Below, piece after piece: positions 26,415 to 44,705 of a stretch of DNA of 64,000 bases. The notes under the pieces are model-generated. The model had not been told where the DNA came from, ran no database searches, and saw only the letters and a list, made by a program, of their open reading frames with translations. The stretch is from an uncultured delta proteobacterium (GTDB lineage: Bacteria; Myxococcota_A; Polyangia; Fen-1088): contig CAVTRY010000013.1 in NCBI GenBank assembly GCA_963737265.1, positions 515,544 to 579,543 on the forward strand, in the 5' to 3' direction. The translations under genes were made by a program, and so were the position numbers. Each line of letters begins with the position of its first letter. Position 1 is the stretch's first letter.

Positions 26415-27485
26415 CTAGCAGGCTGGGCAGCGCGGCCGCCCCTGGGCCGACGGAGCACAAGCCTCGCATAGCATGTGGAGACGGTCGTCGCAGAAGACCG
26501 GTCGCAAGGTGGTTTGCGCGCAGCTCGCGCACGGCAGACGGTCGAGCTGGCGCGTGTCCGCCGGGATCTGCAGCACCAAATTGCCCGCGACCTTGCGGCG
26601 ACGGATGCGCAGGGTCACGCGCGCGACGGCCGCGGTGGCGCGCACGATGGCCGCCGGGGCCAAGACCACCCGTAAGGCATAGCGAGTCTCTAGATCGGCC
26701 AGCATTCGCGCGCGCTCGGCGTGCAGGTGATCGATGCGCGCTTGTCGGACTTCGGTGGCAACTATCCGGCGCGATGCCTGCGTGTCCGCAACGAGCGAAT
26801 CGAAATACTCGCCAATGCGCTCCCGATCCCGGTCGCGGCGCCGATGCACCGACGCGCGAAAGCCGGCCACTACCGAAGCTGCCCGCGCCTGTGCCCGCGC
26901 GATGATGGCACTCGGAACATGGGGAGCGGTGGGAACGCCGTCGAGCGGCGTGTCCGCGGACAACAGGCGACCGGCGCCGTATCCTGGATCGAGGAAGTCG
27001 GCGAATCCAGTTTCCGGCTCGGCCGCCGTGACAGCGTCGGCGACGATGCGCAAGACCGTCTCGAAACGATCGTCGGCCTCGGCCGTGACTGTGAAAAATG
27101 CCGCAAGGTAGGTCGCCTGGCCGCGCGCCACTCCGACGACGTCCACGACCGCGTTGCGCGGGACAAAGTATGCCAGCGCCGCGGAGCAGGCCGCGTCGCC
27201 GGGGGCCTGACCCGCGACCTTCGCCTCGGCGATGGGCACCTGGGTGCGCAGCTGCCCGAGCACGGTGTCGAGGAGCGGGCTACCGAATCCACACGCGGTC
27301 TCACCCGGCGACGCTGGCACATCGGCAAGTCTAACCTCCTCGCCGATCCCGAGCGTTGCTGCCAGAGCCGCCGGCGCCAACGCCAAGCCCCGATCGGGTC
27401 CACCTTCTACAAGCGCGCCTTGGCTGGCCAGGTACTCCGCCAACAGCTCGAACGGCGTGACCAAGGTGGCCGACGACGCAGTCAT
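26415..27485 (-). CDS. Hypothetical protein with C-terminal Cys cluster; partner of the SNF2 helicase (YqhG-like)
   Basis: ATGA overlap with the helicase stop; CASC...C...HMLCEAC...CPAC. Confidence 0.65.
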   Translation of the reverse strand: MTASSATLVTPFELLAEYLASQGALVEGGPDRGLALAPAALAATLGIGEEVRLADVPASPGETACGFGSPLLDTVLGQLRTQVPIAEAKVAGQAPGDAACSAALAYFVPRNAVVDVVGVARGQATYLAAFFTVTAEADDRFETVLRIVADAVTAAEPETGFADFLDPGYGAGRLLSADTPLDGVPTAPHVPSAIIARAQARAASVVAGFRASVHRRRDRDRERIGEYFDSLVADTQASRRIVATEVRQARIDHLHAERARMLADLETRYALRVVLAPAAIVRATAAVARVTLRIRRRKVAGNLVLQIPADTRQLDRLPCASCAQTTLRPVFCDDRLHMLCEACAPSAQGRPRCPAC

Positions 27486-29339
27486 TGGGCGAAGTCCTTG
27501 CCGAAAAGTGCCTCGTCGAGCGCCTTAACGTGCTCATGGTGGCCGCGGGCGGTAAGCAATTGGGCTTCCAATTCGGCGAAACCGCGACCCACGTCCTCCT
27601 CGGTATTCGCTCCGGCGTAGATCGACAGAACCCGTTCTTCCAGATCCCGTTCGTCGGTGAGGTTGCCGAGAACCATGTCCATCTCGCCGACCACCAACTC
27701 GAACAGTTGCAGGCGATCGTGGAGAACCGCCAAAACCCGCTCTTCGATGGTGCCACGCGCGCACAGATTGCGAACGGTGACTGCACCCTCCTGGCCGTAG
27801 CGATGCAAGCGACCGATGCGTTGCTCGATCACCATGGGATTCCAGGGCAAGTCGAAATTCACGAGCGAACGGCAGAACTGCAGATTGAGGCCCTCGGCGC
27901 CCACATCGGTCGCAAGGAGAAGCGCGCCATCGGCCTTGAACCTATCGAGTGCCGCCTGCTTCTCGGCGAGCGCGAGCCCGCCGTGCAGCACGGTCGCATC
28001 GAGTCCGAACAGCGCGATTTCGTGGGCGATGTGGTCGAGGGTGGCGCGGTAGCGGGAGAACACTAAGGTCTTGCCCGGCTGCGTGCGCAAGATATCGAGC
28101 AATACCGCGGTTTTGCGCGTGCTGAGGATGCGGACGGCGTCGCGCCCGAGGGCGAGCAGGCGCGAATCGATTGCGGCCTCGTCTTCATCCCGATCGCGCC
28201 GCTTCACCTCCATGCGTTCGATGGTCGCGGCCACCGCCTGGGGGCTGGAGCCCGCCTCAAGCAGTAGGGTCGTCGCCGCTAAGCGTGCCCCCGGCACGTC
28301 TGCGCTCTCGCGAAACAGGGCAAGCGCGCGCTCGTAGAGCGCCCGCTCTTCGGGCGATGGCTCGAACGAGCACCGTGGAGACGAAACGCGGCGGGAGCTT
28401 GAGCCCGCACTGAGCGCGAGTGTTGCGGACCATGACCTCGCCAAGCAGCGAGCGGAGCCGCTCGCGATTTTTGGGCGAGGTGGGATTGGCCGGATCGACG
28501 AAGGCGGCGCGGAAGGCAGCCGGGGTGGCGAACTGACCGGGCCGCAAGAGCGTGACGATTTGGTACAGCTCCTCGAGCTCGTTCTCGATTGGCGTCGCGG
28601 TCAGCAAGAGGAGGAAGCGGCTCTTGATGCCGTTCACAAGGCGAAAACCGGCCGAGCCGCGGCTCTTGACCCTGTGGGCTTCGTCGACAATGACTAGATC
28701 CCACGGCGTAGCCTGCACCGCCGCCATGTGGCGCGCGCTGCGTGCCAACGCCACCGAGGCCACCACCACGCCGTCGCCCTGCCAGAAGTCATCGCCCAGC
28801 AAACGCAACTGACGATCGGCGGTGTGGCGGACCACGAGGCCCGCCTTGGCACCCAACTCCTCGACCCACTGCCCGAGCAACGTCGGCGGCACGAGAATGA
28901 GCGCACGGCGCACCATGCCCCGCAGTTGGTACTCGCGCAGCACCATGATCGCTTCGATAGTTTTGCCGAGCCCGACCTCGTCTGCCAGCAAGCCACGGCC
29001 GCGAAATACCTTGAGCACGCGACGAACCGTTTCGGCCTGGTAGGGCAAGGCGTCCACGCCGACCAAAGTGGCCGGGGAAAGCAGCTCCGAAAAGCTGCTG
29101 GCCGCCGCCAGAGCGTGCGCGCGCAGCACGCGCGCCACCGCGGCGAGACTCACCGGCTGCGAAATCGCCGCCGCTGTGAAGCTTTCCAAGGCCGGCCCCT
29201 CGACCAGGAGGGCTGGGGCGTTTGTATGACCCGGCGTCACGGCTACGATCCGTAGCACGCCAGCTAGTTCCGATCCACACAAGCACGGCACCACACTCTG
29301 CACCACCGCTGCCAGTCCCCCGACGAGCACTACCTTCAC
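27482..29339 (-). CDS. SNF2-family helicase (YqhH-like); frameshift near 28370
   Basis: LLADEVGLGKT, DEAH, LLLTATP; second frame has GAEGLNLQ, DLPWNPMVIEQRIGRLHRYGQ. Confidence 0.9.
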
Positions 29340-34015: not shown

Positions 34016-35447
34016 GTGGCGGCAGCGGCATGCGCACAGCCCGCGTCTGCGGGACAGGTCTATTCACGGCGACAGCCAGAACTCGGCACCCTGTACCAGG
34101 TGGTGCGCGAGAACCTGCGAACCCTCTACGCTGCCGCCCAGGACGGTTTCGCAGGGGCTGCATTGCCGCCATTTGTGCGCCAAGAATTCGAGGGCTATCT
34201 TGACTGCGGCCATCTTTCACGAGGCTTCGCACACTTGGAATGCGAAGACTGCCACTCGCATCTTCTGGTGGCCCGGCGCGGGATCATCGAGGCCGGCGAT
34301 GACCTGACCGTCCTCGATGACGGCTTTGCAGAGCGAGAGCCGGCGCTCGCGCAACTGGCCGCCGCCGCCGTCGCCGGTCTGGCCATCCCTGCGGAACCTA
34401 GGGCCTGCACGCCCTGCCCCTGCCCCACGCGGCTTCGCCGCGCCCGTCGCCCGCCGGACCCGAGTTGCGCCGCCGCCCCGCCCCCGTGGCTCTGCGCGGA
34501 CATCCCGGCGTCGAGATCACCGCGCCCCTATCGGTCACCGAGATGGGCTTCTCCCTGCACGCTGCCACTCGTGCCGGCGCCGACGATGCCCGTGCTCGTG
34601 AGGCTTTGTGCAAGTACATTCTTCGCCCGCCGTTAAGCCAGGAGCGCCTGCACCTCTTGCCCGATGGCCTCGTCCGCATCGAGTTGCGCAAGCCCTACCG
34701 TGACGGCACCTACGCCGTCGACATGGACCCACTCTCGCTGCTCTGTCGTCTTGCGACAAGCATTCCTCCCCCACGTCGGCATACGGTTCATTACGGTGGC
34801 GTGCTCGCCCCAGCATCCAAGCTCCGACCCACGGTCGTGCCACCGCCAGCCCCGATGCCCGCAGGGCAGGAAGTCCCAGCAACGTCCAGGCCCCCCACGC
34901 ACAGGTCAATCTATCGCCCGTGGTGTGAGCTGCTCAAAAGAACATTCGCCCAGGACGTTGAGAAATGCGCCACGTGTCGGGGGGATTCCCCCCGCAAGTC
35001 CGTTGTTGGGGGGCCTGGACGCATGAAACTCAGGGCCCTGGTGCAGAAGCCAGAGAACATCGCTCGCTTCCTGAAGCATCTGGGCGAGCCCACCGAACCT
35101 CCGCCCCTGGCCCCCGCACGTGCTCCGCCGTACTGGCAGGCTCGCGAGCTGCGCCACAAGCCCCAGGCACAGACCGAACTGCTCGAACGCTTAAGCCATG
35201 CCCGCCCGGCCCAGCCTCATGCCCCACGGCCCGGCCCCATGCCCCAGCCTCATGCCGCACGCTCAGGCGGGTAGGCCGGGCACCCGTCTGCCCAGGCGTC
35301 CCAATTGTGGGGTAAATTGCCGCCTTCGAGTGGCGCCTTCCCTGACCCCAGCGCTTCGCCAGCCCGACGCCAGCCTCGATGCGGCCCGTGTGCGCCGCGC
35401 CAAAACCCCTCCGCCGCCCGCAGGACCCCGCTTGTTTCGCTACGCGT
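34016..35447 (+). mobile_element. IS91/ISCR-like rolling-circle element with internally deleted, frameshifted transposase
   Basis: RRQPE..LYQVV, EFEGYLDCG...CEDC zinc domain fused to GFSLHA...LCKYILRPP; HUH region missing; ends GCTTGTTTCGCTACGCGT. Confidence 0.8.
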
Positions 35448-35636: not shown

Positions 35637-36035
35637 TCATTGCTCCCCTGTCCTCTTCGCGATACCCACCCAATCGTCGATGATCTTCCCAGTCGCCTCG
35701 TCGAGGCCCACGCCGTGTCCGGTCTTGGGCAGAAGGACCAGACGCTTTGGCCCCCTGAGCGCCTGGTAGACGCGTTCGGAATGCGCGGGCGCGGTTTCGC
35801 GATCCCCGGCGCCGTGGATGAGCAGCACTGGGATTGACAGGCGGGCCACCGCCTTCACCGGGCTGACTTCGTCCACCACGAAATGCCCCTGCGTCTCCGC
35901 GAGCGCCAAGGCATCTCGAAGGTTGCCCGCGCTGGCGGAGAACGGCGCACGCTCGCTGGCCACGGTTCGCAAATCCGAAAACGTCGAGATACCGACCACA
36001 CTGGCCACGCGAGGGTCATCCACCGCGGTTCTGGA
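35637..36035 (-). pseudogene. Alpha/beta hydrolase C-terminal fragment
   Basis: PVLLIHGAGD...HS...GH present; the GxSxG nucleophile region is missing. Confidence 0.75.
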
Positions 36036-36123
36036 TTGCCGTTCCGCATCGATCCCATATTCAAAGCCATCGGCCGGCAATGTGAGCTTCGCTCAAAGCA
36101 CAGGATGAGGTATCTATCTGGCC

Positions 36124-36495
36124 ATGGCTTACGGATCGGACCTTCCCTCAGCGGCTCGGCGGCACCTCCATGCGGCAGAGGTTCTTGACGAAAACAAGCG
36201 GCGGGACGTCGCAGGCTATCTCTACGGGATCGCCGCCGAATGCGCGGTGAAAGCGATCGCCATCGGGCAACTTCGGCAGGATGACTGGCACCTAAAACAC
36301 TTTCCGGATTTGCGCACCTTGTTGCGAGACGGGATATACGGAAGAAAGCTTGCCGTGCTCAGCCAGTTCATCAACGATGATTCATTCATGAACAACTGGG
36401 ACGTCAAGATGCGATACGCCTCCGGTAAAGAGATCCTTGACCGCTGGGTGGACGACTGGAAGCGCCAGGCCCGTCAGGTAGTAAGCAAGATCTGA
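36124..36495 (+). CDS. HEPN-like protein
   Basis: Helical pattern AARRH...AGYLYGIAAECAVKA...H..L...W...RY typical of HEPN domains. Confidence 0.65.
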   Translation: MAYGSDLPSAARRHLHAAEVLDENKRRDVAGYLYGIAAECAVKAIAIGQLRQDDWHLKHFPDLRTLLRDGIYGRKLAVLSQFINDDSFMNNWDVKMRYASGKEILDRWVDDWKRQARQVVSKI

Positions 36496-36508
36496 ACATG
36501 AGGGTGAT

Positions 36509-37879
36509 ATGAGCAGACTCTACTTTGACGAAAGTCTCCCAACGCTCGTCCGCATCATCGCAGGCGAACTTGGTGCGGACGCTCTTCACACCGGTAGGGT
36601 CATACGCGACTCGACTGGACGTCTTGCATTTTTCTCGCGCGTCGAACTCGAAATCTCAGCTGTGGAAAGACTTTCCAGCCGATTCCGTAGTGAACTGGGA
36701 ATTTATTCCAGAGACGATCGACCAATAGCCACGGTCGCCGATTTCGGAGCCAGGGGAGTCCTGGACGAGAGTGGGGTTCTCTCGACGATAGTGGAGGGAC
36801 ATCGTGTTGCACTTCTGGACCGGCGTCTAGTCGGAGCTGATTGGTTGGTGGCGCCAGCACCAGGAAGTCCCCCCCCGCCTCGCATCGTCTTTGCGAGCAT
36901 GAAAGGTGGGGTTGGGCGGTCTACGGCGTTGGCGGTAGCGGCCGCAAGCCGAGCGGCCCGCGGAGATCGCGTCTTGGCGATCGATCTCGATATGGAGGCG
37001 CCGGGACTCGGAACGATGCTACTCGATGCGCGGACAACGCCGGAATTCGGCACGATCGATGTGCTCGCAGAAGGCGCGATGGCCTCCTTGGATGAAGAAT
37101 TCTATTCGGATTTGATTGGTTCCGCGCCACTGTCGGCTCATCGGGGAAGGATCGATGTGATCCCAGCGATCGGACAAAGGTCCATCAAGAATCCAGCGGA
37201 TATCTTGTCGAAACTAGCGCGTGCCTACACAGAAGGTGCCAATCCTGATGGTGGCACTAGCACCATCGCGGACCGAGTCCGTACTCTAGTGGACCATTTT
37301 TCGGACCCCAAGAGGTACGACGCTATTCTCGTGGACTCGCGTGCGGGGCTCCACGAGACCACTGCCTCTTCCATCATGGGACTGGGTGCGGAGGTGCTGC
37401 TTTTCGGTTTGGATGAGCCGCAGACGTTTCAGGCATACGCCGCCCTTCTCGGTCACCTGGCGCGCTTTGTTCCGGCCGATGGCCAGCCACCTGAGTGGCT
37501 AGAGCGCCTGACGGGTGTTCAGTCGAAGGCGCCAGAACCTGCCGGCGATCGATCACCTTTCAGCGACCGTTGGCGCCGCCTATTCGAGCAAGCTGGATTG
37601 GCCCGACAATTGCCCCGTACCCCCAATGAGATCCCATTGCCCGCCGAACCGCTTGCTAACGTTCCTTGGGGAGACGATCCACCAGATTCTGAGACGCTTC
37701 TGGAAGAAGGATGGGCAGTTCAATCCCCTCTCGCTATCCTTGACGATACTCGATTCCGAAATTTCGACCCACTGCCGCGAGCTGATCAGCTAGAGGAGAA
37801 TGCTTGCCGAGCTACCTTTGGGACCTTTCTGAATTGGGTTGATCAGGCATTGGCACCGGACAAGGACAAGATTCGATGA
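36509..37879 (+). CDS. ParA/MinD-like ATPase, KGGVGR-motif variant, with extra N-terminal domain
   Basis: FASMKGGVGRST, IDLDMEAPGL, ILVDSRAG. Confidence 0.85.
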   Translation: MSRLYFDESLPTLVRIIAGELGADALHTGRVIRDSTGRLAFFSRVELEISAVERLSSRFRSELGIYSRDDRPIATVADFGARGVLDESGVLSTIVEGHRVALLDRRLVGADWLVAPAPGSPPPPRIVFASMKGGVGRSTALAVAAASRAARGDRVLAIDLDMEAPGLGTMLLDARTTPEFGTIDVLAEGAMASLDEEFYSDLIGSAPLSAHRGRIDVIPAIGQRSIKNPADILSKLARAYTEGANPDGGTSTIADRVRTLVDHFSDPKRYDAILVDSRAGLHETTASSIMGLGAEVLLFGLDEPQTFQAYAALLGHLARFVPADGQPPEWLERLTGVQSKAPEPAGDRSPFSDRWRRLFEQAGLARQLPRTPNEIPLPAEPLANVPWGDDPPDSETLLEEGWAVQSPLAILDDTRFRNFDPLPRADQLEENACRATFGTFLNWVDQALAPDKDKIR

Positions 37880-39357
37880 CCTCTGAGCAAGAACTCTATG
37901 CTGTGGTCCGAACCTCGCTTGCATCGATGTCTGGAGATGTATCGCACGACGCAGTTGGCAACCGCATACCGGAAGCCTGCGAAATCTATGCGCCGGAGAC
38001 CCACGCCGCTGCGCTGGACCCCCAAACGTCAATTGTCCTTGGTGCGAGAGGGACTGGAAAGAGTTTCTGGGCTGGCGTCCTCGGGAATGACGCCACTCGA
38101 ATGGCGGCCAGTGGGGCGTATCCTCGGTTGGCGCTAGACACCGTCGATGTGGGATTCGGTTTTACTGGACTGGGCGGCCCCGAAGGCATCGGCAGAGATG
38201 CCCTGGATGATCTACTGCCAACATCGGCGGGAGCAGAAGAGGCCAAACAATTCTGGCGAGCCACTATTCTCCACGCGGCCGCCCTGTCTACAGGCGCCGG
38301 GGCTGGCAGAAGCTTGGACGACGCGCTCAATCAAGCGGGCGATAGAAGAGCAAGGGAACAGACCCTCAATGATGTTGAACGCGGTCTGCGAGCGAAGAAT
38401 CGGACTCTCCTTATCGTGTACGACGCCCTTGACAACATAGCAACGGATTGGCCTCGTCGTAGATTGCTGACGGAAGCGCTGTTCGAAGTAGTGTGGGCCA
38501 TGCGAGCCTATCGGGCTATCCGATTGAAGCTTTTTCTTCGTCCCGACCAAATCGACGATGAGGACCTGCGCTTCGTTGAGCTGCCTAAACTCAGAGCTGG
38601 TGCGGTTAACCTTAAGTGGTCGCGTATCGATCTTTATGGATTGCTTTTCTCACGAATTGCTCTTGCACAGGACGCGCAAGCAAGAAGTGCGTTCGGACAA
38701 ATCGTCAAGAGAGAAGGCATTGCAGATGCCGATCAGCAGAGCGTACTTACGCGCAGGTGGGCCCTCGCATATTCGCTTGATCAACAGCGCAAGGTCATGA
38801 GCATTCTGGCCGGGGATTACATGGCCAGAGGCAACTTCGGGTACAAAAAGGGGAACACCTACGATTGGCCACTCGATCACCTAGCAGATGCGTTTGACGA
38901 GGTTACTCCGCGCAGCTTTCTCGGTCTCATGATCGCTGCGGCCAAGCACGGTGAGAGACCCACCGACCGAGTCATCACCCCAGATGGTATTCGACACGGA
39001 CTCCGAGCAGCCTCAAAGACTAGGGTTGATCAACTCCACCAGGAATTCCCCTGGATCAAAGCCGTGCTGGCACCACTAGCGGGTCTGTTGTTGCCTCAGA
39101 AAGATGAACAGGTATTCAGAGCCTGGCGGCAGGCAAGAACTGTCGCCACAGTGCTGAGCGATGCCCAGAAGAACCACTATCTGCCACCGTACCCACCGGT
39201 GGCCGCAAATACGGCTGGTGATGAATCGCTCTTGTTCCTGGCTCTTGAGCGCATTGGGGTAATGTTTCGTAGGAGCGACGGGCGCATCGATATGCCTGAC
39301 TTGTTCAGGGTCGCCGCGAAGCTCTTGAAGAAGGGCGGCACGGCCCCTCTGGACTAG
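37876..39357 (+). CDS. P-loop ATPase (Sll1717-like)
   Basis: Walker A GARGTGKS, Walker B LIVYDALD, KLFLRPD, TPRSF; ATGA overlap with the previous gene. Confidence 0.8.
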   Translation: MTSEQELYAVVRTSLASMSGDVSHDAVGNRIPEACEIYAPETHAAALDPQTSIVLGARGTGKSFWAGVLGNDATRMAASGAYPRLALDTVDVGFGFTGLGGPEGIGRDALDDLLPTSAGAEEAKQFWRATILHAAALSTGAGAGRSLDDALNQAGDRRAREQTLNDVERGLRAKNRTLLIVYDALDNIATDWPRRRLLTEALFEVVWAMRAYRAIRLKLFLRPDQIDDEDLRFVELPKLRAGAVNLKWSRIDLYGLLFSRIALAQDAQARSAFGQIVKREGIADADQQSVLTRRWALAYSLDQQRKVMSILAGDYMARGNFGYKKGNTYDWPLDHLADAFDEVTPRSFLGLMIAAAKHGERPTDRVITPDGIRHGLRAASKTRVDQLHQEFPWIKAVLAPLAGLLLPQKDEQVFRAWRQARTVATVLSDAQKNHYLPPYPPVAANTAGDESLLFLALERIGVMFRRSDGRIDMPDLFRVAAKLLKKGGTAPLD

Positions 39358-39675
39358 CGCCCCCTGCCAAAAGTATCGCCCCCCCTCCTCATGCGAGATT
39401 CTCGCCCCTCCGAGGTGAAATGGGGCAAAGGCTGACTTCCGCACCCCACTTCACTTCCCATTTGACTCCACGCCCCTCATTCAAGCAAACTAACTCCGCT
39501 TTCTGAGAATCAAGCGCGCAGTTGCCGGACCGAGGAGGGCGGGGTTGCTTTGCAGCCTCCACGTTGTTGGCCGCTCCCTCGGTTGATGTTGGGCAACTCG
39601 CCCTGAGTTGTTGAACCTCGTTGCACCTGTAGTACCCGTAGTACCTGTTGCACCCCCACATCAAGGAGACAGTCA

Positions 39676-40559: not shown

Positions 40560-41886
40560 TCAATGCGCGCCTCTATCCACCAGCTCTTCTTCGAGAGCGG
40601 TCCAGTCGAGCTTGGCGCCGACTTGGGCCAGGACGGCATAAAGGCCAATCCGAATGCGGAAAAGGAACATCAGTTTGCCGGGAAGATGGAGTCGCAACAG
40701 ATTCTTCTTGAGCTTTGCCACCTGTCCCATGGTGATGGCTTGGTCGGGCTCCACGCGATGACGGCCGGATTCGAGCAGGGGTGCGTAGAAGCCGCGCAAA
40801 ACAGACCGCGTGACGTCGAAGTCGCGCGACGGATTGGATGCCCCGAGCGACAACAGCGCACCTTGCATCTCGGTGGTGTTGTCCGCACGCACGGCACGCG
40901 ACAAGCGGACCAGCGCGGCCACCACGTCAGACTCGAACTCGCGCACGCAGCCGTGGTCGAGAATGGTCACGCGACCGTCGTCCGCAAATAGCAAATTGCC
41001 TGGGTGAGGATCGGCATTGAAGAGGCCGTGGCGATAGAGAGCGCCAACGTAGAACTCGTAAAGCGCCCGCGCTGCGCGCACCTTTTCCGCTTCGTATTTG
41101 GTCTTTGCCACGAACGCGTCGAGCATGGCTCCGTCTTGCCAGCTCGAACGTCAGAACCCGCGGGCCGCAATAGTCGCGAAAGGTGGCCGGAATGGTGATG
41201 GCGGCGTGCCCGGCGAAGACTTCATGAAATCGTATCTGATGGCGAGCCTCCAGCGCATAGTCGCATTCTTCGAGAAAGCGCGTCTCGGCCTCGGCGAGGA
41301 AACTCTCGACATTGGCGCCGGGAACCACCACATGAGCGAAGAAGCTGCCGACAGATGCAGTCTTGAAGTCGGCGCGAATGGCGTCTGCGATGCCGGGGTG
41401 GCGAACTTTCACGGCGACGCGCGTGCCATCGTCCAGCGTCGCACGATGAACCTGGCCGATGGACGCACTCGCCACCGGCACGGGTTCCAGGCGAGGCAAA
41501 AGCGTGCGCGAGCGCGCGCCGAGATCTTCGCGAATTGCCAGATGGATCTGCGACAGCGGCGTGGGCTGCGACATGACTTGCAAAACAGAAAGCAAGCGCC
41601 GAGCTTCCGGTGACAGCGAAACATCGAAGTAGGACAAAATCTGCCCGGCCTTCATGGCGATGCCCTTGAGCTCGCCCAGGCTCTCGACCAGTTTGGCGAT
41701 GGCGTCTGGCGACAGCGCAGCGACGGTGAGGTCTTCGCCGCGCAACCGTCCCGCAATTGCTCCGACGCCCAGGCGGGCCGCGGCGGTCGCCGTCTTTTGC
41801 AGACGCGAGAAGGATGACGTGGGAAGGGTCTTTCCGCTTTTCGCGCGGAGATTCTCGAAGAGCAGCTGGCGACGATCGTTGGCCAT
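40560..41886 (-). CDS. AarF/ABC1/UbiB atypical kinase; frameshift near 41130
   Basis: LKGIAMKAGQ, ASASIGQVHRA, VAVKV, NADPHPGN, LDHGC. Confidence 0.88.
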
Positions 41887-41906: not shown

Positions 41907-42199
41907 ATGGAAACCCTCAAAGGGTTTCCATACCTTCCCGCGCACCGGCTCCCCGGGGCTAAGCCCCACCTCGCCTCCGCGAATCTATGGAAACCCTCAA
42001 AGGGTTTCCATACCTTCCCGCGCACCGGCTCCCCGGGGCTAAGCCCCACCTCGCCTCCGCGAATCTATGGAAACCCTCAAAGGGTTTCCATACCTTCCCG
42101 CGCACCGGCTCCCCGGGGCTAAGCCCCGCCTCGCCTCCGCGAATCTATGGAAACCCTCATCGCCTTCCCATGCCTTCTCGCGCACCGGCTCCGCGGGGA
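41907..42199. repeat. Tandem 80-bp palindromic repeat, three copies plus a degenerate partial
   Basis: Units start at 41907, 41987, 42067, 42147; hairpins ATGGAAACCCT-CAA-AGGGTTTCCAT and GGGGCT-A-AGCCCC. Confidence 0.95.
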
Positions 42200-42211
42200 C
42201 GCCGCATTGGA

Positions 42212-43666
42212 TCAGATTGCGCAGCAGATCGTCTGCATTCCCGTTTCAGTTGCCGTCCCTGTGGATGTCGTGGGGTTGGCGGTGCAGCCACCGTCCGCGA
42301 TGACGTCCAGCGCCCTCACGCTATTGTACCCAGGGTCGATTCCGCTCTGTACGGCTTGGCATCCCAAGTTGAGGGTTGCAATGGGTGCCGCATACCCGGC
42401 GCAACCGTCGTTCTGAAGAGTGATCGATCCGCTGCAAGATCCAGTGATGGGGCCACAGGTGCATGCGGTGCACCCCCTCGTATCCTCGTATCCGGTCGAT
42501 GCCGTCAATGGGTTAGGGTAATCCGATGGGCAGGTGGCGTTGCCGGCGACGTAAACACAAAGCTGTTGACCGCCGTTGAGCGGTGGGACGCACTTCCCGC
42601 TGCCGCTGCAGGATTCGGGAAGCGCACATGCGCTGCGCATTGTCGACCAGGACACGGCCGGAATCGTCTTCGACGGTTGAAACGTGCAGCTGCCCGTGGC
42701 GCCGAATTTCGCTCCCACGAGCCAAGCTACCATCGTCGTTGGGAGGCTCGACGTGAGCATGGCGCAATCCAGGGATGAAGACAGAGTCGCGAGGATGGTC
42801 GGCGGCGTGAAGCAGTCGCCTGCATACCCAAGCGTCACATTGCTGCAACTGAGTTGGCCTTTCGTCGGCGTGCCACATGAACAACCGCACTGCGCTGCCG
42901 GCGCAGCAAGCCCACTATGCGCGGTCAAAACTGAGCTCGGCGCAAGGGCAGGGCAGCTAGGTGCGGTCGGGGATGCCGCAGAAACCAGAACCACCGGGCC
43001 ATTCCACCCGGGAGGCGCCGTCTTGCACGTGCTTGCAGCGTTGCCACACGCCGAGCCGCCTGTGGCCGTCATGCCGCCGCTGCCGACGCCGCCCGTGGCC
43101 ATCGCGCCGCCGCTGCCGACACCGCCCGTGGCCATCGCGCCGCCGCTGCCGACGCCGCCCGTGGCCATCGCGCCGCCGCTGCCGACACCGCCCGTGGCCG
43201 CCCCGCCAGAGCCGCCGGTGGCGATGGGAACGTCGCTGCCGCCCGCTCCGCCCGACGGGGTCCCGCCATCGATCCCGGACGCTCCGCCGCGACCACCAAC
43301 ACCGGACACGCCGCCCGTGCCGACGGTGCCGCCAGCAGCGTCAATCCCACCAGCCGAAAGATCCGGACTCGTGTCCGGAGTCAATGGAATGTCCGCCAGT
43401 TCCGGAACATCCGGTCCCGCGTTCAAGCTGACGTCGTAGCCGCCCGGTTGGGACGCATCCACGCTCCCGCGACTGTCGATTCCCGTGCTGCCCGCGCCGC
43501 TGTCCAGCAAGCCCGGTGCCGTATCCACCAGCCCAATCTGAGCGCCGGCTTCACTTCCAGCGTCGATGGCATTCCCTCCGTCAACCATCGGCTTGAGACC
43601 AAAGTCGTAGCCACACGAGGGGGTGAGGAGGAGGAACAAGAACGAAACCCAAACCCGCTTCGTCAT
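42212..43666 (-). CDS. Lipoprotein with Gly-rich linker and Cys-rich C-terminal domain
   Basis: MTKRVWVSFLFLLLTPSC lipobox; GGVGSGGAMAT repeats; many Cys, ends TICCAI. Confidence 0.8.
   Translation of the reverse strand: MTKRVWVSFLFLLLTPSCGYDFGLKPMVDGGNAIDAGSEAGAQIGLVDTAPGLLDSGAGSTGIDSRGSVDASQPGGYDVSLNAGPDVPELADIPLTPDTSPDLSAGGIDAAGGTVGTGGVSGVGGRGGASGIDGGTPSGGAGGSDVPIATGGSGGAATGGVGSGGAMATGGVGSGGAMATGGVGSGGAMATGGVGSGGMTATGGSACGNAASTCKTAPPGWNGPVVLVSAASPTAPSCPALAPSSVLTAHSGLAAPAAQCGCSCGTPTKGQLSCSNVTLGYAGDCFTPPTILATLSSSLDCAMLTSSLPTTMVAWLVGAKFGATGSCTFQPSKTIPAVSWSTMRSACALPESCSGSGKCVPPLNGGQQLCVYVAGNATCPSDYPNPLTASTGYEDTRGCTACTCGPITGSCSGSITLQNDGCAGYAAPIATLNLGCQAVQSGIDPGYNSVRALDVIADGGCTANPTTSTGTATETGMQTICCAI
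43073..43199 (-). repeat. 33-bp coding tandem repeat, about four copies
   Basis: Encodes (ATGGVGSGGAM)n. Confidence 0.85.
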
Positions 43667-43715
43667 CAGAATGCTGCTCCTTGCCACTTGCGCGAGGTGG
43701 TAGTCACGGGGTCCT

Positions 43716-44705
43716 TTAGAATGCGGCAGCCAGACCAAATGGTGTGATGTGAACGGCGGTGTTCTGCCCAGTGTTCTGGCCATCGTCGCGCCCGAGCCAA
43801 TAGGTGACGCCGGCGGTGACTGCCAGCGCAGCGGCGGCGATGCCGCACCCGATGGCGATGTTGCTCGCGCTTTGCGTGTCGGATCTGGCGGAGTCGCGTT
43901 TCTGGGCCACGCTCGGATCTCCGGTGTTGTACTTCTGGAAGTCCGAGTAGTGACCGCTGGCAATCATCCAAAAGGCGCCAGCCGTTGCCCCCGCTGCGAG
44001 TGCGCCCGCAAGCGTCGACCACGTGACGATCCGCAAAGCGCGGGTCCTAGGATTCGGCTCTTGGCTGACCGGAGAGGAAAGGTCGGGAGTCGGCGCGACG
44101 GTCACCGGTGGTGACTGCATCGGGGTTGCGGTCGGCGCCGGCGTCGGGCTCGGCTCTACTTCGAGGCTGAGCAACTCCAACTGCTCCTTCCCTGAAACCA
44201 GCTGTACCGCTCGGCGCTCCCTTCGATAGCCAGACCGGGTCGCCTCGATCACGTGTTGGCCCGGCGAGAGGACCAAGGGCCCGCGCACAAGACCAGCCCC
44301 CGTATCCTTTCCATCTACAGCGAGGCGGGCATCGACGGGCTCGACCTGAACAGTCAGTCGAGCGACGAGCGAGCGAATCTCCGCTTCCCGTCTTGCCGTC
44401 GCCGATTTTATCTCCGGCTTGAGCACCTTGCCGAAATCGTGGTTGAGGCGTTCAAGGGTCGTCAGCGCGTCCCCGTAGCGCTGCATCGCTTGGTAGCAGT
44501 TGGCCAGATTGAACAGGCTGTTTTGCGTCGCAAACAGAGCCGTCGATCGTTCGAAATTGGCGGCGGCGGCCACGAAATCGTCCAGCTTCATCAGTTTCAG
44601 TCCTGACTCGAACAGCTGTTTGGCTTCGTCTTTCTCGCTGGCCACGGCCGGAAGGGCCAGGCACAGGGCAAGCGTCAACAAGGGGAACTCTAGTCTCATT
44701 TTCAT
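43716..44705 (-). CDS. TPR + PEGA domain membrane protein
   Basis: Signal peptide, EAKQLFESG...LFNLANCY TPR, VEPVDARLAVDG...PGQHVIEATRSGY PEGA, C-terminal TM helices. Confidence 0.85.
   Translation of the reverse strand: MKMRLEFPLLTLALCLALPAVASEKDEAKQLFESGLKLMKLDDFVAAAANFERSTALFATQNSLFNLANCYQAMQRYGDALTTLERLNHDFGKVLKPEIKSATARREAEIRSLVARLTVQVEPVDARLAVDGKDTGAGLVRGPLVLSPGQHVIEATRSGYRRERRAVQLVSGKEQLELLSLEVEPSPTPAPTATPMQSPPVTVAPTPDLSSPVSQEPNPRTRALRIVTWSTLAGALAAGATAGAFWMIASGHYSDFQKYNTGDPSVAQKRDSARSDTQSASNIAIGCGIAAAALAVTAGVTYWLGRDDGQNTGQNTAVHITPFGLAAAF

Follow-up and report, generated by a model that had tools for sequence, protein, structure and literature searches.

A stretch of 64,000 nucleotides from an uncultured delta proteobacterium of the Fen-1088 lineage (assembly GCA_963737265.1, contig CAVTRY010000013.1, positions 515,544 to 579,543), hereafter the window, carries a cassette of three genes, A, B and C, at positions 36124-39357 of its forward strand. 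A first-pass annotation of this DNA had read them as a conflict or defence system consisting of a small HEPN protein and two nucleoside triphosphatases (NTPases), and as a system both new and unnamed. The first part of that reading is supported: A is HEPN by profile and fold, B is a ParA-like ATPase of the KGGVGR kind, C is an ATPase of the ORC/Cdc6-STAND type, and the triad is kept in other genomes. The second part is not. Proteins A, B and C match the PADLOC models PDC-M28A, PDC-M28B and PDC-M28C nearly end to end, and the architecture is that of the HINPO system. Since the cassette matches a described system, which the annotation itself had named as telling against novelty, that claim fails. 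A PADLOC run had been proposed, no hit being taken to support novelty; a comparison with PADLOC's hidden Markov models alone matched all three proteins. That the cassette belongs to PDC-M28/HINPO is close to certain. We think it probable that it works as a candidate defence system in which C is the sensor, B the switch and A the effector.

The two names come from separate lines of work. The 145 phage defence candidates (PDCs) were recognised because their genes occur inside BREX, DISARM or type I restriction-modification (RM) systems, and they were entered into PADLOC (PADLOC-DB v2; Payne et al. 2024, bioRxiv 10.1101/2024.01.29.577857). The main text of that preprint, by Payne, Hughes, Fineran and Jackson, does not name PDC-M28. 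Some PDCs other than PDC-M28 have since been tested experimentally. HINPO was described by Li, Burroughs and Aravind (bioRxiv, 22 Oct 2026) as genes for a HEPN protein (PA-HEPN1), an iNTase-ParA protein (ConB2; iNTase, inactive nucleotidyltransferase) and an ORC-CDC6/STAND AAA+ protein, in that order. According to their account, the ORC-like gene is sometimes fused to the ParA protein and the system is enriched in multicellular bacteria; the preprint makes no mention of PADLOC. We infer that PDC-M28 and HINPO are the same system. How well does the cassette fit the HINPO description? The HEPN gene lies upstream, the ParA is ConB2, the third protein has the ORC/Cdc6-STAND fold, the gene order is kept and ParA-ORC fusions occur; nothing tested contradicts membership. 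Literature searches with 'PDC-M28', 'KGGVGR' and 'Sll1717' returned no match.

Gene A (36124-36495, forward strand) encodes 123 amino acids, gene B (36509-37879, forward) 456 and gene C (37876-39357, forward) 493. As first noted, the genes are intact and co-oriented, and their junctions are legible in the sequence: 13 nucleotides separate A from B, and B and C overlap in an ATGA. The A-B spacer contains a Shine-Dalgarno-like string, GAGGGTG, ahead of the ATG of B. These open reading frames (ORFs), the low GC content of the cassette overall and at third codon positions (GC3), the truncated hydrolase gene beside it and the split neighbouring genes, all described below, confirm the observation. 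The feature is real, intact and beyond chance.

Protein A corresponds to PDC-M28A and to the PA-HEPN1 of HINPO, and is the predicted RNase effector. It matches the PADLOC model with an E-value of 1.6e-24 over profile columns 4-127 of 138. A profile search of 1.84 billion representative sequences returned 1257 relatives at E<=1e-3. Against the Pfam HEPN family, PF05168, A scores 20.6 bits, under the gathering cut-off of 22; we draw its membership of the HEPN superfamily from profile and fold comparisons. When 102 members of the A family were compared with Pfam at E<=0.01, 21 matched HEPN and 10 matched HEPN_AbiV. The hhalign template was built from 26 bona fide PF05168 proteins, all encoded in genomes belonging to the same class. 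The A family aligned to them at 92.1% (E 6.3e-7, 109 columns), whereas the controls stayed low: 0.2% with the template reversed, no more than 0.4% in 20 column shuffles and no more than 1.3% against four unrelated alignments. This alignment pairs E39/K43, H59 and R97-Y98 of A with conserved HEPN positions. The AlphaFold 2 (AF2) models have a predicted local distance difference test score (pLDDT) of 94.7 for A and 88.6 for C. A Foldseek search with the model of A returned nothing at E<=1e-3, yet ranks 1-10 are all HEPN structures, the nearest being AF0298; a search of the A profile against the sequences of solved structures gave no matches. The HEPN fold proposed for the first ORF is thus borne out by the hhalign comparison and by the Foldseek ranks.

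The HEPN-like pattern of E..K, H and RY residues seen at the outset proves to be conserved (E39, K43, H59, R97-Y98, together with W92): all 102 aligned A-family sequences have G35, E39, K43, H59, W92 and R97. The canonical Rx4-6H motif was said not to be evident, and in these same sequences no histidine follows R97. A literal R51-x4-H56 in the A protein of the window is not conserved, position 56 being Y, F or R in other members. In the survey by Anantharaman et al. (2013, PMC3710099), HEPN proteins of the AF0298 type are described as missing the motif histidine and having a second conserved histidine N-terminal to it, a predicted alternative active site. The invariant H59 and R97 of A fit such a predicted alternative-His site. 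Lactococcal AbiV was weighed as a possible earlier case of a motif-less RNase and rejected, as this RNase carries Rx4-6H (91-RNHKSKH-97).

Protein B matches the PDC-M28B model (PDLC04559) with an E-value of 1.2e-89 over columns 3-434 of 438. Three regions can be told apart by mean pairwise identity. The N-terminal domain (residues 1-120, 36509-36868, forward) evolves faster than the core (0.47); the ParA/MinD-type ATPase core of the KGGVGR (ConB2) kind (residues 123-320, 36875-37468, forward) is the best conserved part (0.67); and the C-terminal region (residues 321-456 with the stop codon, 37469-37879, forward) is poorly conserved (0.38). Neither terminal region matches a Pfam or NCBIfam family, and Pfam matches to B lie at its Walker A end only. 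The naming of the second ORF as a KGGVGR ParA-like ATPase is upheld by NCBIfam NF047398 (KGGVGR-motif variant AAA ATPase), which matches residues 123-317 with 171.5 bits against a cut-off of 90. The B profile also matches structures of MinD, FleN and ParA.

The motifs KGGVGRST and DSRAG, picked out from the letters alone, are conserved: each of the 20 B sequences compared has K132-GGVG-R137-ST and D276-x-RAG. Equally invariant are D159-x-D161 and P165-G166 within D159-L-D161-x-E-A-P165-G166. In this arrangement K132 is the signature lysine, R137 takes the place of the P-loop lysine and D276 is the Walker B residue. With a search pattern that allowed Lys or Arg at the P-loop position, 45 of 45 Walker A strings carried Arg. 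The canonical KGGxGK[ST] Walker A of ParABS and MinCDE is therefore absent from B, which has Arg at the Lys position. The ConB2 clade of ParA proteins is defined by Arg for the Walker A Lys together with PG after the sensor-1 DxD (Li, Burroughs and Aravind 2026). Both marks are present, and B is by these motifs a ConB2-type ParA. The HINPO preprint assigns the N-terminus of B-type proteins to an inactive nucleotidyltransferase of the Pol-beta type.

Protein C, the predicted sensor, matches the PDC-M28C model (PDLC04561) with an E-value of 2.9e-114 over columns 10-478 of 480, and Pfam gives a weak match to AAA_16. It had been called Sll1717-like. C is indeed a relative of the Sll1717 family of P-loop ATPases, but it is not a member by the rule of NCBIfam, as it scores 59.7 bits against NF047389, for which the cut-off is 75. 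The reported GARGTGKS and hhhhD motifs hold up: GxRGxGKS (Walker A, G56-S63) and D183-A-L-D186, with D183/D186 as Walker B, are invariant in 23 of 23 C sequences, as are R222 and T344-P-R346. Foldseek returned six matches to the C model at E<=1e-3, all of them ORC, Cdc6 or related archaeal AAA+ proteins; after these six rank BrxC, plant NLR proteins, Apaf-1, CED-4, Avs3, TnsC and MuB. Comparing the C profile with the sequences of solved structures gave three matches, which is chance level. Judged from its model, C has an AAA+ fold of the ORC/Cdc6-STAND type.

Is the triad kept as a unit? Conservation was assessed in 24 loci from Alpha-, Beta- and Gammaproteobacteria and Myxococcota, found with C at 55-67% identity. 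The order A-B-C holds in 20 of them; two others are cut by contig ends and two are remnants (L025 and L026). Among the 20, a deletion has fused A and B in one (L012) and B is split in another (L016). No fourth gene recurs beside the triad. Mean pairwise identity is 0.51 for A and 0.60 for C. The genome of the window holds a second complete A-B-C cassette on another contig (C15, about 169771-172903; locus L027, 8266-11398), in which the genes overlap. Its A, B and C proteins are 26, 37 and 35% identical to those of the window, and its C scores higher on the PADLOC C model (485 bits, against 380 for the C of the window).

The cassette has a patchy distribution. Of 301 genomes from the phylum, 27 have a KGGVGR domain that scores over its cut-off, often with several such domains in one genome; none of 14 control genomes has one. 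The best 30 of these loci comprise 10 with separate A, B and C genes, one with B and C only, five with B and C in one frame and 14 with the ATPase alone within a short stretch. In longer stretches, B-C fusions of 883-923 amino acids were seen in four genomes, and a fifth fusion has a frameshift. NCBIfam places both domains of the fusions over their cut-offs in two of the four genomes, and some fusion proteins pass the NF047389 (Sll1717) cut-off. HEPN-like ORFs lie upstream of all four assessable fusions; taken as a four-sequence profile they match the A family at 94.3%, and a single such ORF compared with the A profile reaches only 21.8%. The fusions suggest that B and C act together physically. 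Relatives of C occur on 23 of 72,556 plasmid records, conjugative ones included, whereas 50,697 phage records yielded none. In one case, an Agrobacterium plasmid, the three-gene layout, annotated as hypothetical, AAA family ATPase and hypothetical, adjoins an integrase.

The KGGVGR domain is also found joined to arrays of TPR, WD40 or pentapeptide repeats in other proteins. One, of 1885 amino acids (L102, 2914-8568, forward), has the KGGVGR ATPase followed by pentapeptide repeats and WD40 propellers. In another, of 1245 amino acids (L103, 1-3735, reverse), the ATPase is followed by an Mrr nuclease, a NACHT/nSTAND1 module and pentapeptide repeats.

Enrichment in defence islands had been suggested as a further test. 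We compared 209 ORFs within 7 kb of the triad at the 24 loci with PADLOC at E<=1e-20, and clear matches were found at four loci, or at five with an RtcR-like regulator, which is not counted as defence. The five loci carry PDC-S15; SoFic; DrmD with AbiU and a type III methylase; PtuB with a DpdF/GajB-like helicase; and the RtcR-like regulator. Pfam annotation of 103 flanking ORFs from 11 loci adds a TIR-PDZ protein, SIR2, an integrase and a PIN/MqsA pair, the rest being mostly housekeeping genes. With so few PADLOC matches and such flanks, the association is modest, as Payne et al. call that of PDCs in general (bioRxiv 10.1101/2024.01.29.577857). In Allochromatium palmeri (L013, 8199-18158), a cluster of DrmD, AbiU/AIPR and a type III methylase follows directly downstream of the cassette, about 290 bp away. 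Two decayed cassettes in Accumulibacter (L012, 6549-9166, and L016, 7938-11446), in both of which C is intact, adjoin SoFic, PtuB and a DpdF/GajB-like helicase of 1736 amino acids.

How might the three proteins work together? In the scheme that we favour, C, with its Walker A and Walker B motifs intact, would detect a cue from an invader, most likely foreign DNA; as Li et al. argue, DNA is the obvious cue because C is an ORC/Cdc6-type protein. B and C would act as one nucleotide-gated switch or assembly. B itself would be a nucleotide-dependent dimerising switch; it keeps the lysine that is the dimer signature of ParA but has Arg at the P-loop. A, an AF0298-type HEPN protein with R97 and H59, would then cleave RNA and bring about dormancy or death of the infected cell. 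That the cassette acts against mobile elements is likely. The specific order of events, from sensor C through switch B to RNase A, is more tentative, and we put it at somewhat less than an even chance. A bolder version is doubtful: B and C might form a two-NTPase machine in which the Arg P-loop makes the ParA module a nucleotide-gated latch and not a motor, release of the latch might license a HEPN RNase with a non-canonical R97/H59 site, and the two copies in this genome might recognise different invaders.

Several observations weigh against the scheme that we favour. The literature searched holds no experiments on PDC-M28 or HINPO, and the HINPO description is itself computational. A has no canonical Rx4-6H by sequence, and since AbiV carries that motif, the literature found offers no alternative-His HEPN protein with proven activity. 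The N-terminal stretch of about 120 amino acids in B is a conserved domain, but it aligns with 19 minimal nucleotidyltransferases (MNTs) at 0.3% in hhalign, a comparison of sequence profiles alone. With Arg for the P-loop Lys, B may not hydrolyse ATP; Kaur et al. (2020) regard similar MinD/ParA-like domains of other conflict systems as inactive. The score of C lies below the Sll1717 family cut-off, the link to defence islands is modest, and among the ORFs scanned neither cassette copy of the genome of the window is at a PADLOC-positive locus.

The strongest competing explanation is that of the HINPO preprint. There C senses the DNA of selfish elements and guides B into ParA multimers, which are the main effector and block replication or expression of the invader; HEPN is a backup for death or dormancy, and the iNTase of B senses nucleotides or nucleic-acid fragments. 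The emphasis of that text on ParA multimers counts against our placing of A as the effector. It also agrees with the stronger conservation of B and C (ParA core 0.67, C 0.60) than of A (0.51), with the fusion of B and C in several genomes and with the occurrence of KGGVGR domains without HEPN, fused to TPR, WD40 or pentapeptide arrays. Yet A-type HEPN genes stand ahead of four of four assessable B-C fusions. The five invariant polar or aromatic residues of A, kept across 102 diverse sequences, suggest an enzyme under steady selection and not an optional extra, and Arg in place of the P-loop Lys casts doubt on B cycling as a polymerising ParA. On balance we consider ParA multimers unlikely to be the main effector. 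A might be a non-catalytic HEPN-fold adaptor, the output coming from the NTPases or from an unlinked partner; A has no conserved Rx4-6H, Anantharaman et al. (2013, PMC3710099) count many HEPN domains as inactive and Pfam HEPN is below its cut-off for the A of the window. Against this, the residues at the HEPN Glu/Lys, His and Arg positions are invariant, and the nearest structure, AF0298, belongs to a class predicted to use an alternative histidine. We regard an adaptor role as very unlikely.

The cassette could be a toxin-antitoxin (TA) or addiction module in which a ParA-like ATPase restrains a HEPN toxin and which mainly stabilises the mobile DNA that carries it. The HEPN-ParA/Soj dyad, with the ATPase as proposed antitoxin, is a precedent (Anantharaman et al. 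2013, PMC3710099), the 13-nucleotide gap couples A closely to B, the cassette of the window sits among insertion sequence (IS) and TA-type genes, and plasmid carriage (23 records, with conjugative plasmids among them, and one cassette beside an integrase) points the same way. However, the precedent belongs to another HEPN family, MAE_18760, which has Rx4-6H; the large ATPase C is equally conserved and sometimes fused to B, which would be unusual for an addiction pair; and most of the 24 chromosomal loci have no mobile-element genes within 7 kb. An addiction module is thus quite unlikely. Could the cassette be an inert passenger that happens to have stayed intact while an IS-ridden region decays around it? 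Frames are split in three genes nearby, each over two, and the hydrolase gene is truncated; no RNA data were found for the stretch, and one soil-metagenome DNA run covers part of it. But none of the three ORFs is shortened relative to its PADLOC profile or has lost an invariant residue, and cassettes that have decayed look different: the A-B fusion of L012, the split B of L016, the remnants L025 and L026. A functionless passenger is highly improbable. Least credible of all, to the point of being nearly dismissed, is a partition or positioning system of the ParA type. ParA, MinD and MipZ profiles do match B at its Walker A region, but the partition and MinD equivalog models of NCBIfam score far below their cut-offs, the P-loop Lys is Arg, and B is accompanied by a HEPN protein and an ORC/STAND-type ATPase. 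The absence of parB and minCE remarked on in the first-pass annotation also holds: among the 106 ORFs of at least 110 amino acids that make up the gene context of the window there is no ParB or Min family member, an ORF of MinE size being below that limit.

The predicted sensor C, switch B and effector A have parallels in several known systems. The closest is HINPO itself, whose small upstream HEPN gene, ConB2 ParA with an extra N-terminal domain, downstream ORC/Cdc6-STAND AAA+ and occasional ParA-ORC fusions were all seen here independently; we differ in giving more weight to A as effector. As for PDC-M28, the related L013 locus beside a DISARM-like cluster is in line with the 'guilt-by-embedding' origin of PDCs, whereas the copy in the window is not embedded in BREX, DISARM or RM. 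C has fold and P-loop motifs in common with STAND/Avs-type proteins, ORC/Cdc6-like immune NTPases and BrxC of BREX, and the L103 protein joins ParA-like, Mrr nuclease and NACHT parts in one chain. Unlike those proteins, C is short (493 amino acids) and has no repeat-type sensor arm, its effector is a separate gene and a ParA-clade ATPase lies between them. In HEPN-MNT pairs (for example SO_3166/SO_3165, MntA-HepT) the toxin is modified by an MNT that is enzymatically active. The N-terminal domain of B, by contrast, is reported to be inactive, has no profile likeness to MNTs (0.3%) and is fused to a ParA ATPase. The HEPN-ParA/Soj dyad likewise has a HEPN gene beside a ParA/Soj-type ATPase gene and embodies the idea that the ATPase controls HEPN; its MAE_18760 HEPN has Rx4-6H and N-terminal domains of its own, and the dyad, as described, has two genes and no ORC/STAND partner (Anantharaman et al. 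2013, PMC3710099).

With all its genes intact, the cassette is a clean representative of a widespread family (1257 representative clusters of A-type HEPN proteins) that has been predicted to be immune twice and independently, from embedding in defence systems and from comparative genomics of the ParA clade. Here the names PDC-M28 and HINPO are linked and the folds of two of the three proteins, A and C, are confirmed. One genome can carry two copies that are only 26-37% identical. What remains of value is a well-defined candidate for the first experimental test of the family, together with the cross-link between the two names. Candidate key residues are E39, K43, H59 and R97 in A, K132, R137 and D276 in B, and K62, D183 and R222 in C. 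The family bears on the possible role of Arg-P-loop ATPases of the ParA clade as immune switches, and on possible RNase activity in HEPN proteins without the motif. Were the latch and the R97/H59 reading true, A would be the first of the 'alternative-His' HEPN class with a demonstrated activity and B the first immune switch of the ParA clade to have experimental proof.

The cassette lies in a lower-GC island (about 36030-39500, strand not assigned), whose approximate limits we set from GC, GC3 and the end of the hydrolase homology. The genes had been described as more AT-rich than their surroundings, and GC is indeed 0.54-0.60 over 36000-39500 against 0.62-0.70 in both flanks; GC3 is 0.56-0.70 in the cassette against 0.75-0.84 in five core genes of the window. 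At the start of the island an alpha/beta hydrolase gene is cut off, leaving a C-terminal fragment (35637-36080, reverse strand). As proposed, this gene has lost its 5' part: the fragment matches only the C-terminal parts of Pfam alpha/beta-hydrolase profiles, and orthologues in genomes of the same genus lie in open frames of 277-426 amino acids. DNA homology to one such orthologue stops at about 36027, with no synteny beyond. Comparison of the window with that locus showed homology in the hydrolase fragment alone and no empty site. Direct or inverted repeats of note do not flank the island, and promoter-like and terminator-like sites are no more frequent than in shuffled sequence. The cassette was likely acquired by horizontal transfer.

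The debris of broken genes reported around the cassette is there too. Genes for an SNF2 helicase (27482-29339, reverse), an IS91 transposase (34016-35274, forward) and an ABC1 kinase (40560-41886, reverse) are each split over two overlapping frames, and could be pseudogenes or could reflect indel errors in the assembly. Downstream of the cassette lie a PIN gene, an IS3 element and more copies of IS91.

Three other features of the window deserve mention. A 356-amino-acid ORF adjoining the split SNF2 helicase (26415-27485, reverse) has a weak match to a YwqJ-like deaminase (E 6e-4, under the cut-off). Overlapping ORFs that follow the ABC1 kinase gene downstream (41907-42420, forward) all start with METLKGFPYLPAHRLPGAKP, evidence of an approximately 80-bp tandem repeat. 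A 583-amino-acid ORF (42212-43963, reverse) has repeated GGVGSGGAMATGG units, a Cys-rich C-terminal half and no Pfam match.

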